Source: Dictyostelium discoideum (Eukaryota). Taken from it: a stretch of 64,000 bases of DNA. The first letter of the stretch is position 1. Each line of letters opens with the position of its first letter. The notes beneath the pieces were generated by a model that worked only from the letters and a program-made list of their open reading frames with translations, was not told the DNA's origin and searched no databases. This document shows positions 38,082 to 43,518 of this stretch, piece by piece. Made by a program: the position numbers and the translations under genes. The stretch is taken from the NCBI GenBank assembly GCA_000004695.1, contig CM000152.2:1536001-1600000 (forward strand), read 5' to 3'.

Positions 38082-38153
38082 AGTTCCGAACCAGGATTGA
38101 ACTGGCGACCTAACGATTTGCAGTCGCTTGCTCTTCCACTGAGCTATCGAAAC
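38082..38153 (-). tRNA. tRNA-Cys (anticodon GCA).
   Basis: The reverse complement folds as a canonical cloverleaf. Acceptor: GTTTCGA/TCGGAAC, 7 bp with one G-U. D arm: GCTC-AGTGGAA-GAGC. Anticodon arm: AGCGA-CT-GCA-AA-TCGTT. T arm: GCCAG-TTCAATC-CTGGT (TTCRANY loop). The discriminator is U73, as expected for Cys. A-box (TAGCTCAGTGG) and B-box (GGTTCAATCC-like, here AGTTCAATCC) promoter elements are present. Confidence 0.85.
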
Positions 38154-40140: not shown

Positions 40141-40792
40141 AATCACCAATAACAAAAAATAACAATAAAATAATATCAACAAATTTTATTTTAAAAATTC
40201 TTTGTTTGATGGTTTTAAAATTTCAAAATATTTTTTTATTTTTATTTTTTTTTTTTACCAAAATTTTACCACCCTGAATTTTTAAACAAAAAAAAAAATA
40301 AAAAAAAAATAAAAATAATGATATTTTTATTGTAAAAATCACTTTAAAAGTCCAAATAAAAACTTCGAAAAGTTGAAACCCTTTTCGACAAATCTTTTTT
40401 TATTTTTTTTTTTTTTATATTTTTTTTTTAAAAAAAAATTATTTTTTATGATTTTTTTTTTTAGTCAAATAACCATTTTATTTAAAAAATTTTTCATCAC
40501 ATTTTATTTGTAAATTTGTGTGTGTGTATTTATTATATTAAAAAAATTATTAAAAAATAAAAATAAAAATAAAAATAAAAAACCCCATCGAAACATAAAT
40601 CTCACACATTTCAAATTTATACGCACTTTTTTTCATTTAACAATAATTTTTTTTTTTTCGTTTTACATCAAAAAAAAAAAAAAAAAAAAAAATTTTCATT
40701 TACATACCCACAAAATAATCAACAAATTATATATACATCCAAATTTAAATATTACATATATAAATATAGCGCAAAAATAAAACAAAAATACA

Positions 40793-41940: not shown

Positions 41941-42048
41941 ACATTTTAATTTTGTAAATTAATATATAGTTAATAAAAACAAAAACAAAAACAAAAACAA
42001 AACAAAAAAAAATTAAAATTAATTTGGTGTGGAAAGAATGGTGTAGTA

Positions 42049-42175
42049 AATGGATTATAGTTTTATTTAAAAATAAAAAAAATATGATGTAATAAATGAA
42101 TCATAATTTTACAATAAAATAAAAAATGGTGAAATAAATGAATCATAATAAAATTAATCTTTGTGTGTTTTGTTT
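42049..42175. repeat. Three tandem, diverged copies of a ~43-bp unit (atgRtgNARtaaatgRaTYATARttt...aaaataaaaaa) in the short spacer between two convergent genes.
   Basis: Units start at about 42049 (atggtgtagtaaatggattatag...), 42087 (atgatgtaataaatgaatcataat...) and 42128 (atggtgaaataaatgaatcataat...). Confidence 0.4.
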
Positions 42176-42224: not shown

Positions 42225-42923
42225 TTAGTTGTCAGCAACTTTTTTGGTTTGGAGACCTTTGAAGCTCTTGACGATGACTAATGAAGCAACAGTGTATAAT
42301 TTTTCAGTTGCGTTTTCATCTTCGTTTCTCTTTCTTGAGAGGGTGACACGGACTCTGTGTGGAACGTTCTTGATACCTTGGCTCCATAAGAATTTGTTTA
42401 ATTTGTTATCAATACGGACATCTTTGGTACCCATGATCTTTTGAGCAAAGAGCTTGACTTGTTTGACAGCTTTTGGGGCTCTATCCTTGAAGGTACTAAA
42501 TGATTTGAAGTAAAAATGATGATGATGGTTAACAATCTATTTTATTTAAATATTTATTTTATTTGACAAGGGGACCAGATGAATTGTAAAAGTATAAAGA
42601 CTCTCTAAAAGTACGTAGTGGTGTGATGGTAGGTTGTGTTACGACACAACCCCCACTACGTAAAGAGGTGGCAGAATATCTGCTCTTGTATACCCTATTG
42701 AAACAGTAATAATATTATTACTACTGTTTACAATAGATACAAAACACCTGACTCCTTGCAAAATGTAATAATCCTTTATCCTGAATCTATATTTACTTTA
42801 ATCTATGGATTAAAGATAGATTGACTAGGAATAAGATATCAATTAACATTTTACATACGTTCCGTAGAGTCTCTTGTGGAGATTGATGGTGTATTCTCTG
42901 GTGACGGCTTCAGATGATGACAT
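42225..42923 (-). CDS. rpl31: 60S ribosomal protein L31 (eL31). Two exons: 42923..42859 and 42495..42225, separated by an unusually long and GC-rich 363-nt intron.
   Basis: The encoded protein [21 protein letters not shown]|[74 protein letters not shown]... is collinear with eukaryotic eL31 (…[81 protein letters not shown]…). The GTATGT donor and ATTTAG acceptor are in phase 2. Confidence 0.85.
42600..42790. ncRNA. Candidate structured non-coding RNA (snoRNA-like) embedded in the rpl31 intron. The strand and class (H/ACA or C/D) are unresolved.
   Basis: About 45% GC over 200 nt inside an otherwise AT-rich genome. Nested perfect stems: acgtagtgg...ccactacgt (9 bp) encloses ggttgtg-ttacga-cacaacc (7 bp) with an asymmetric internal loop. 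A second long imperfect hairpin is ttgtata..ctattg-aaacagtaataat/attattactactgttt-caatag..atacaa. A TGATGATGATGG (C-box-like) string lies at 42516 on the + strand. See findings. Confidence 0.3.
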
Positions 42924-43518
42924 TGTGATATGGATGCTATACAGATAATCAAATTTCAAAAAAAAAAAAATTAAAAACAGTTCTTCCGCCCCCCAAAAAA
43001 AAAAAAAAAAAAAATTTTGAAAAAAAAAAAAATTTCGAAAAAAAAAAACGAAAAGCCCGAATAACGTTATATTAATAGATTTTTTATTTTTTTTTAAATT
43101 ATTTCTTCTTTTAATTTTTTTTTTTTATTTAATTATTTTTATACTATTATAATTAATAATATTATAATTATTTTAGGATATTTTCTTTAATAATGTGGTA
43201 ACTATTTTCAAATTAAAATTTAAATCTTTTTTTTTATTTCTTATAACTTAAATAATATCTATAAAAAAAAATTTCTAAAAAGGAAAAAAAAAAATAAAAA
43301 AATATATACTTTTATGATTAAACAACATTTTAAAAATTAAAGAAAAAAAAAAAAAAAACAAAAATCTCATATCTAGATTTAAAAAAAGATAAATCAATAA
43401 AGAAAGAATCAGGTTATTTTTTTTTTTTTAAAAATTGTTTTTTATTTTTTTATTTTTTTTTTTTTGTTTAGTTATTTTTTTCTTTTTTTTTTTTTCTTTT
43501 TTTTTTTCTTTCTTTTTT

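Follow-up and report, generated by a model that had tools for sequence, protein, structure and literature searches.

The rpl31 gene and its intron

The 64,000-nucleotide (nt) stretch of Dictyostelium discoideum DNA analysed here (hereafter the window; contig CM000152.2 of assembly GCA_000004695.1, positions 1,536,001 to 1,600,000, numbered from its first letter) contains rpl31, a single-intron gene for ribosomal protein eL31 which lies on the minus strand at 42225–42924. Our subject is a structured domain within the rpl31 intron. The joined exons specify a protein that is identical at 111 of 111 residues to eL31 of D. discoideum AX4 (EAL67952.1), which bears out the 363-nt intron and the boundaries proposed in a preliminary description made from the sequence alone (Table 1). 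The intron is also identical to the rpl31 intron of assembly GCA_054883475.1 (locus L008). That description put the introns of the window at 70–250 nt and about 90% AT, which agrees with the general picture of the D. discoideum genome. The guanine–cytosine (GC) content of the rpl31 intron is 29.8%, compared with 21.8% for the whole window and 5–15% for the adjoining non-coding DNA. The figure of about 45% GC first given for 42600–42790 was too high; this segment contains 36.1% GC and the segment 42570–42700 contains 42.7%, while 44% is reached only in the richest 100 nt. Because positions +13 to +15 of the intron form a UAA in the reading frame, unspliced rpl31 RNA cannot make eL31.

Orthologues were found by an eL31 protein search followed by look-up of the encoding contigs. 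The group-4 set comprises ten sequences: the window, D. firmibasis (L001), D. citrinum (L002 and L003), D. purpureum (L004) and five labelled D. discoideum (L009–L013). From outside group 4 we used Tieghemostelium lacteum (L005), Acytostelium subglobosum (L006), Heterostelium album (L007) and a metagenomic dictyostelid contig (L014). The rpl31 intron lies at the same codon in all of the orthologues retrieved. The group-4 introns are 231–375 nt in length with 28–32% GC. Those of T. lacteum, A. subglobosum and H. album are 134, 137 and 101 nt, respectively, with fold z-scores of −0.33, +0.23 and +1.39. Since these same-site introns are short and unstructured, the domain is an added, lineage-specific feature, and its distribution indicates that it arose in the group-4 Dictyostelium lineage.

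Table 1. Features of the rpl31 locus, in window coordinates. Helices are those of the predicted folds.
Feature	Position	Strand	Details
rpl31 exon 2, coding part including TAA stop	42225–42495	−	Spliced eL31 frame
rpl31 intron 1	42496–42858	−	363 nt; GUAUGU...UUUAG; GT (42858) to AG (42496)
Candidate branch-point-like motif	42523–42535	−	UUGUUAACCAUCA; 27–39 nt upstream of the 3′ splice site; putative role
Whole conserved structured domain	42566–42759	−	About 194 nt; closed by terminal helix P1
3′ strands of P3 (UCUU.UAUACU) and P1 (UACAA..CAUCUGG)	42575–42600	−	Contains the sole ACA candidate, UACAAU
P5, long hairpin	42601–42667	−	CUCUU + UACGUAGUGG / CCACUACGUA + GAGAG
P5 tip, lineage-specific	42622–42652	−	31-nt insertion; inner stem ggttgtg/cacaacc and 10+3 loop
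Block B	42667–42697	−	UAGGGUAUACAAGAGCAGAUAUUCUGCCACC; contains AGAGCA; invariant apart from two D. firmibasis changes and a 1-nt D. purpureum indel
P4, mini-hairpin	42671–42683	−	GCAGA-UAU-UCUGC; inside block B; stem invariant, loop varies
P2, hairpin	42695–42736	−	18–42 nt by species; a hairpin in every sequence; compensatory changes
Block A	42734–42752	−	GUCAGGUGUUUUGUAUCUA; invariant in 10 of 10 sequences including D. purpureum
Hairpin 0, imperfect rod	42769–42841	−	Base (UCCU/AGGA, UCUU/AAGG) conserved, tip variable
P0, 5′ strand	42846–42855	−	UGUAAAAUGU; intron +4 to +13; covers part of the 5′ splice site
rpl31 exon 1, coding part	42859–42924	−	ATG at 42924–42922; spliced protein matches eL31
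P1, long terminal helix		−	GCAAGG.GUCAGGUG..UUGUA / UACAA..CAUCUGG..CCUUGU; minimum free energy folds of ten orthologues
P3, helix		−	GGUAUA.AAGA / UCUU.UAUACU; minimum free energy folds

Predicted fold of the intron RNA

The host-sense intron folds with a minimum free energy (MFE) of −100.1 kcal/mol, compared with −60.4 ± 4.6 kcal/mol for dinucleotide shuffles (z = −8.57), and none of 100 shuffles was as good, in agreement with the dense self-complementarity noted previously. The corresponding z-score for the plus strand is −5.05, and that for the D. purpureum intron is −3.95. Independent MFE folds of all ten group-4 orthologues share a common multi-helix architecture, the elements of which are listed in Table 1. 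The three stems of the preliminary description are all present. The outer pair, TACGTAGTGG/CCACTACGTA, is a perfect helix of 10 base pairs (bp; 42612–42621/42653–42662) and forms the stem of P5, while the inner pair, GGTTGTGT/ACACAACC, has 8 bp (42632–42639/42644–42651) and lies in the P5 tip. The second hairpin is P2, in which the stem AAACAGTAATAATA/TATTACTACTGTTT is extended by CTATTG/CAATAG. P2 is fully paired with no internal loop in all ten sequences; its arms are about 20 nt in D. discoideum, but it is reduced to 7 bp in D. purpureum and to about 9 bp in L011.

Upstream of the domain, the P0 strand at 42846–42855 pairs in the MFE fold with ACAUUUUGCA (42757–42766), a pairing which is also found as an inverted repeat, and in doing so closes the rod of hairpin 0.

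RNAalifold, applied to eight sequences, prefers a conformation (Alt-1) in which blocks A and B pair with each other through UUUUGUAU/AUACAAGA, to which AGGUG/CACCU is added in the full-intron MFE folds of D. firmibasis and D. citrinum and in constrained Alt-1 folds. Together with P2 and P4, the Alt-1 helices make up a three-way junction with no unpaired junction nucleotides. In the second conformation (Alt-2), which excludes the first, both blocks pair instead with the 3′ strand of the domain, giving P1 and P3. Alt-1 is the MFE state of the complete D. firmibasis and D. citrinum introns and Alt-2 that of the D. discoideum and D. purpureum sequences; in core-only folds Alt-1 is 3–10 kcal/mol less stable than the P1/P3 fold. 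Dual pairing constraints of this kind would explain the invariance of the two blocks. Bistable switches and riboswitch expression platforms likewise contain conserved segments that form two exclusive helix sets of similar stability, but the rpl31 domain has no known ligand and no Rfam riboswitch match, any switching would follow from predicted folds, and chance alone can also produce such alternative folds.

Conservation of the domain

The few deviations within block B are all apical in P4. When D. discoideum is compared with D. purpureum, the two blocks show no substitution in 50 aligned nt, whereas exon 2 is 83% identical, with 73% identity at third codon positions and 18 of 26 four-fold sites unchanged. 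This indicates that the intron core is under stronger purifying selection than the surrounding coding sequence. Non-coding DNA is rarely alignable between these two species, and a 50-nt intronic core which is better conserved than the adjacent exon is in our view the mark of a functional RNA.

We considered whether the blocks might simply be splice-site-like signals, serving as a recursive or decoy site or in unproductive alternative splicing for regulation. Block A contains UCAG|GUGUUU, in which CAG|GU offers six contiguous potential pairs to the 5′ end of U1 small nuclear RNA, and block B contains G|GUAUAC, in which GUAUAC is complementary to the authentic 5′ splice site GUAUGU. These motifs are short, however, and lie within predicted helices in both folds; no pyrimidine tract precedes the CAG, and the invariant stretches are far longer than any splice signal. 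We regard this as the least probable of the explanations considered here, with only a slight chance of being correct.

Conservation of the intron as a whole is a mosaic: helix bases and junctions are 88–100% identical, while hairpin tips, the linker and the 3′ tail are 3–57% identical. Within the discoideum/firmibasis/citrinum clade both strands of P0 are conserved at 88–97%. In L011, D. firmibasis and D. citrinum identity is also in this range over the opening 32 nt of the intron and over the 30 nt before block A. In hairpin 0 the base is 88–97% identical and the tip 39–49%. The insertion at the tip of P5 is found in the window, L010, L012 and L013 and partly in L009; the other five of the ten sequences lack it, with only 3–23% identity in L011, D. 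firmibasis, D. citrinum and D. purpureum. The internal loop of 10+3 nt in this tip had been likened to an H/ACA pseudouridylation pocket. Its geometry is as described in the D. discoideum sequence, but as part of a lineage-specific insertion it is not conserved.

Near the 3′ end of the intron, UUGUUAACCAUCA is identical at 13 of 13 positions in L011, D. firmibasis and D. citrinum, while the flanking linker and tail are only 23–57% identical. Among the discoideum, firmibasis and citrinum sequences it lies between about 27 and about 75 nt from the 3′ splice site. From this pattern it is probably the branch-point region.

The position of this motif is relevant to a passive role for the structure, in which it would merely draw the branch point of an unusually long intron towards the 5′ splice site and so keep splicing efficient. 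Zipper stems with this role have been described in long yeast ribosomal-protein introns. P0, hairpin 0 and P1 together close about 290 of the 363 nt and leave the 5′ splice site about 40 nt from UUGUUAACCAUCA, in the manner of yeast stems whose long-range helices surround most of an unusually long intron; furthermore, the unrelated 337-nt intron of L014 likewise has a long end-to-end helix (z = −3.6). A zipper requires complementarity rather than a particular sequence, and the yeast stems are conserved in pairing and not in sequence. It would thus leave unexplained the 50 invariant nt, the conserved junction and P4 of the rpl31 domain. It also provides no reason for the intron to have lengthened, given that other dictyostelids manage with 101–137 nt at the same site. 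A purely passive role therefore seems improbable to us.

Compensatory change is most evident in D. purpureum. The 3′ half of the domain differs in sequence in this species but remains complementary to the unchanged blocks A and B (GUUUUG/CAAAAC, CAGG/UCUG, CAGGG/CUCUG and AUACA/UGUAU). P5 is UGUAUCU/AGAUGCA, with four pairs changed on both sides, and a shortened hairpin 0 is retained as AUUAAUCC/GGAUAAU. In alignment A2, standard pairs occupy 97% of the paired cells, compared with 37–52% when the partners are slid and 94.7% when the alignment is shuffled. Seven pairs are changed on both sides, compared with 1–3 and 1.9, respectively. None of 500 shuffles reached the observed pair counts on any measure. 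We regard the covariation as supportive rather than statistically strong.

Several of the invariant pairs are G·U, and the conserved G·U pairs (for example those of columns 20/78, 16/189 and 12/193 of A2) would become A·C mismatches on the plus strand. These pairs and the stronger host-sense z-score show that it is the host-sense strand that functions. The preliminary description had left both the strand and the class of the RNA open; the former is now settled, while for the latter no known family fits. An independently transcribed antisense RNA, which had also been proposed, is disfavoured.

The compensatory changes, the G·U pairs and the strand asymmetry likewise indicate that selection acts on RNA rather than on DNA, and so bear on a further group of explanations. 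One is an intronic enhancer or promoter; the intron begins 66 bp after the ATG, a site where intron-borne transcriptional elements are common. A functionless relic of a mobile or hairpin element is another, but a core more conserved than the exon is not neutral, and no second copy of the domain was found in the 64-kb window or in the 14 related loci (about 60 kb). P2 might alternatively be the precursor of a microRNA (miRNA), its arms in D. discoideum being of about the right length and giving a weak mir-280-like Rfam match (E = 8.8). We rejected this candidate. A DrnB-dependent Dictyostelium precursor would be a conserved hairpin with arms of at least about 21 nt, but the total length of P2 is not conserved, shrinking as described above, and the miRNAs published for D. 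discoideum do not include the rpl31 locus; the intronic ones are mir-1180 in DDB_G0293106 and mir-7102 in DDB_G0284713 only. In addition, no match to the DUSE promoter motif of non-coding RNA genes lies within 2 kb. Taken together, these explanations are very improbable.

The conserved and compensating helices thus lend strong support to the earlier suggestion of a structured functional RNA in this intron; loss of the hairpins in related species, which would have refuted it, is not seen for the core. The comparative data indicate a genuine, selectively maintained host-sense RNA element to which no known small nucleolar RNA (snoRNA) or Rfam class fits. Homologues of blocks A and B were absent from the introns of T. 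lacteum, A. subglobosum, H. album and L014, the T. lacteum intron showing only a 9-nt chance match (CACCUCUUU), and metagenome scans with the invariant blocks gave no matches.

The assemblies of D. discoideum, D. firmibasis and D. citrinum have the gene order PAN3–rpl31–ATG27-like. The neighbours of rpl31 in D. purpureum are topoisomerase I and a PAN3 gene in inverted orientation, and the intron domain has therefore survived local rearrangement. We also note the intron of L014 (L014:83–419; metagenomic contig JGI 3300028107), which interrupts the same codon of a gene whose eL31 product is 79% identical. It combines its own end-to-end helix with a GC-richer internal hairpin, GAGAUAACA...UGUUAUCUU, has no similarity to blocks A and B and may represent an independent structured rpl31 intron in another lineage.

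Several rpl31 gene models run into the intron, including P0002 (153 residues, D. citrinum), P0123 (124 residues) and P0008 (metagenome). The affected loci (L002:3001–3711, L003:3001–3703, L013:1501–2189 and L014:352–687) carry wrong N-termini or extra residues. The relatively high GC content of the intron and its open frames seem to mislead gene callers.

Comparison with known RNA classes

When the introns of D. discoideum, D. purpureum and D. firmibasis were scanned against Rfam by E-value, only noise was returned, so that the covariance-model check suggested at the outset places the element in no known family. With Rfam 15 gathering scores the sole match in the 64-kb window, and hence none in the rpl31 intron, is a tRNA gene on the minus strand at 38082–38153. 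ARAGORN detected no tRNA or tRNA-like element in the intron.

The preliminary description had named an intron-hosted snoRNA as one candidate; our results do not support one of either the H/ACA or the C/D type, since neither a conserved ACA or pocket nor a C/D pair is found on either strand. Among H/ACA models, SNORA20 gave E = 7.4 in D. discoideum (16.6 bits, compared with a gathering score of 60), and this on the non-conserved hairpin 0; H/ACA covariance models had no match in the D. purpureum or D. firmibasis introns. The invariant AGAGCA is placed between P2 and P4/P5 and agrees with the consensus ANANNA of the H box, which would be single-stranded in the hinge of an H/ACA RNA; here it is base-paired in both predicted folds, AAGA with UUUU or UCUU and GCA within P4. 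UACAAU occurs only in the discoideum, firmibasis and citrinum sequences, D. purpureum having CAAAAC at this point, and in the MFE fold its ACA triplet is paired with UUGUA. A pocket-to-box spacing of the H/ACA type, with the top of the pocket 14–16 nt upstream of the H or ACA box, fits only some D. discoideum sequences. We therefore rejected a canonical box H/ACA snoRNA.

A box C/D snoRNA was rejected as well. As first reported, the host sense contains no RUGAUGA/CUGA pair, and in fact neither box is present on that strand. The string TGATGATGA (42517) and the CTGA motifs (42748 and 42781) occur on the plus strand only, 230–270 nt apart, as had been stated; a C/D snoRNA, whose boxes lie near its two ends, is 70–120 nt long. 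The plus-strand UGAUGAUGA is unconserved, D. firmibasis having AAUGAUGG and D. citrinum UUGAUGG at this site. We note that UUGUUAACCAUCA overlaps the plus-strand TGATGATGA string for which a C-box role had been weighed. Only one intronic snoRNA has been reported in D. discoideum, the box C/D RNA CD38 (DDB_G0283293, chromosome 4, 91 nt, 25% GC; PMC8817022). It resembles the rpl31 domain in lying in an intron of a protein-coding gene, but CD38, like mir-1180 and mir-7102, belongs to another gene and has another sequence, and none of the three is this element.

Other candidates were also set aside. For U17/snR30, the m1-like AUAUUCUGC forms P4, its first bases vary across species, there is no m2 partner and no SNORA73/snR30 match was found. 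Resemblances to a kink-turn, an Sm site, vault-RNA box A/B and U2/U6-like sequences, judged by eye, are weak or unconserved. No description of an rpl31-intron element was found in Rfam 15 or the searchable literature, a scope which excludes the candidates of Aspegren (2004) and Larsson (2008), so that the one H/ACA RNA published so far, or one of the GC-rich candidates predicted, could map here.

There remains the broader proposal that the domain is excised and accumulates as a stable trans-acting RNA, either a non-canonical H/ACA-like snoRNA or an orphan ribonucleoprotein (RNP) RNA of a new class. P1 would then guard the ends, and blocks A and B would bind proteins or targets. Much in the domain is compatible with such an RNA. 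Its host is a ribosomal-protein intron which is GC-richer than its surroundings, its 5′ and 3′ ends are joined by P1, and its blocks are as invariant as snoRNA boxes or guides. It shares with intron-hosted H/ACA snoRNAs the host sense, two main hairpins with the ANANNA-like AGAGCA between them, and an ACA in some species: in the discoideum, firmibasis and citrinum sequences UACAAU follows P3 by 3 nt and the base of P5 by 13 nt, and the span from UUUUGUAU to ACAAUU is about 130–160 nt, an H/ACA-like size. Furthermore, a single H/ACA snoRNA has so far been described from D. discoideum (PMC8817022), so that nearly all of them have yet to be discovered.

The domain nevertheless departs from H/ACA snoRNAs in its additional P4, its long terminal helix and its paired H-box candidate, and it has no conserved pocket: P2 contains no internal loop and the sole pocket-like loop is in the lineage-specific insertion. 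The ACA is missing at the equivalent site of D. purpureum, no Rfam H/ACA or C/D model scores consistently above noise in the three species, and the published intronic small RNAs of D. discoideum map to other genes. In addition, the conservation runs past the domain to the 5′ splice site, which is not expected for the flank of an excised snoRNA. In our view a stable trans-acting RNA, although the main rival to the interpretation that we prefer, is rather less likely than not. If such an RNA does accumulate, it would represent a new family in a genome whose pseudouridylation guides are almost wholly unannotated.

A possible role in rpl31 splicing

Of the alternatives raised in the preliminary description, the most likely is a regulatory structure that controls rpl31 splicing. 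Our preferred interpretation, which we hold tentatively and at somewhat less than an even chance, is that the domain may be a cis-acting, protein-bound element with this function. A host-sense domain of about 130–200 nt would act in cis on its own rpl31 pre-mRNA, and a trans-acting protein would recognize the invariant junction formed by blocks A and B. By analogy with the feedback systems of yeast RPL30, RPS14B, RPL22B and RPS9, free eL31 would be the natural candidate for this protein. Binding would fix one of the two conformations, which might make the 5′ splice site more or less accessible or alter its geometry relative to the branch point, and in this way tune the share of rpl31 pre-mRNA that is spliced productively.

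Several observations lead us to favour a cis-acting role. Constraint extends without a break from the P1-closed domain out to the 5′ splice site and does not stop where a mature RNA would have its ends. Both invariant blocks are held in two competing pairings, which suggests a conformational choice. Translation of unspliced RNA would stop at the in-frame UAA. Lastly, the classic examples of a pre-mRNA whose own structure mediates splicing feedback come, as has been reviewed, from ribosomal-protein genes. The rpl31 domain has one feature of an autoregulatory element, namely a conserved RNA structure in the pre-mRNA of the protein itself, at or near a splice site. Such an element would in addition mimic the rRNA site to which eL31 binds and, when bound by excess eL31, lower productive splicing.

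Other observations weigh against this interpretation. To our knowledge, and according to one review, autoregulation of eL31 has not been described in any organism. Very high conservation of primary sequence, together with a terminal helix that brings the two ends into contact, would be just as characteristic of a stable RNP RNA acting in trans. The pairing probability of P0 and the 5′ splice site was not above that of shuffled AU-rich controls, from 3 to 16 of 60 of which were as good, and the modelled pairing of the 5′ splice-site region is thus suggestive only. The changes on both sides of pairs come mostly from a single divergent species, D. purpureum, which gives the covariation low power.

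The yeast systems offer the closest parallel to a cis-acting splicing domain. In RPL30, RPS14B, RPL22B and RPS9 the structure likewise lies close to the 5′ splice site, within the first intron of the ribosomal-protein gene or beside it. The yeast elements are also lineage-restricted, they have the sequence-invariant parts expected for recognition by a protein, and their unspliced RNA does not code for the protein. They differ in scale, the rpl31 domain with its multi-helix junction being about 190 nt and far larger than the RPL30 kink-turn or the RPL22 hairpin. They differ too in that no eL31 loop is known and that protein binding, mimicry of rRNA and an effect on splicing are here proposed by analogy.

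We also considered whether the domain could belong to a previously undescribed class of eukaryotic structured RNA dating from the common ancestor of the group-4 Dictyostelium species. This might be a bistable three-way-junction switch which senses a protein or metabolite and gates splicing, or a new type of stable RNP RNA, derived from the intron and belonging to neither the C/D nor the H/ACA class. We consider so novel a class doubtful.

Should the domain prove to be a feedback element, it would be the first example described in Amoebozoa, and the first for eL31, of a ribosomal protein that regulates itself at the level of splicing, and would widen the range of a mechanism documented chiefly in yeast, nematodes and vertebrates. 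In either case, as a feedback element or as a stable RNA, it is a small, well delimited element in a genetically tractable organism and poses a directly testable question.

Flanking sequences

The DUSE match nearest to the intron is ACCCACAA at 40706–40713 on the plus strand, about 80 nt upstream of the ATG (40794) of the ATG27-like gene. As the motif is rarer in the window than in shuffled sequences, this match is probably due to chance. The rpl31 and ATG27-like genes are convergent, and the short spacer between them contains about 2.7 imperfect tandem copies of a 42–46-nt unit (...AUGGUGUAAUAAAUGAAUCAUAAU...) at 42033–42149. These copies fall in the 3′ untranslated region or terminator region of the two genes.

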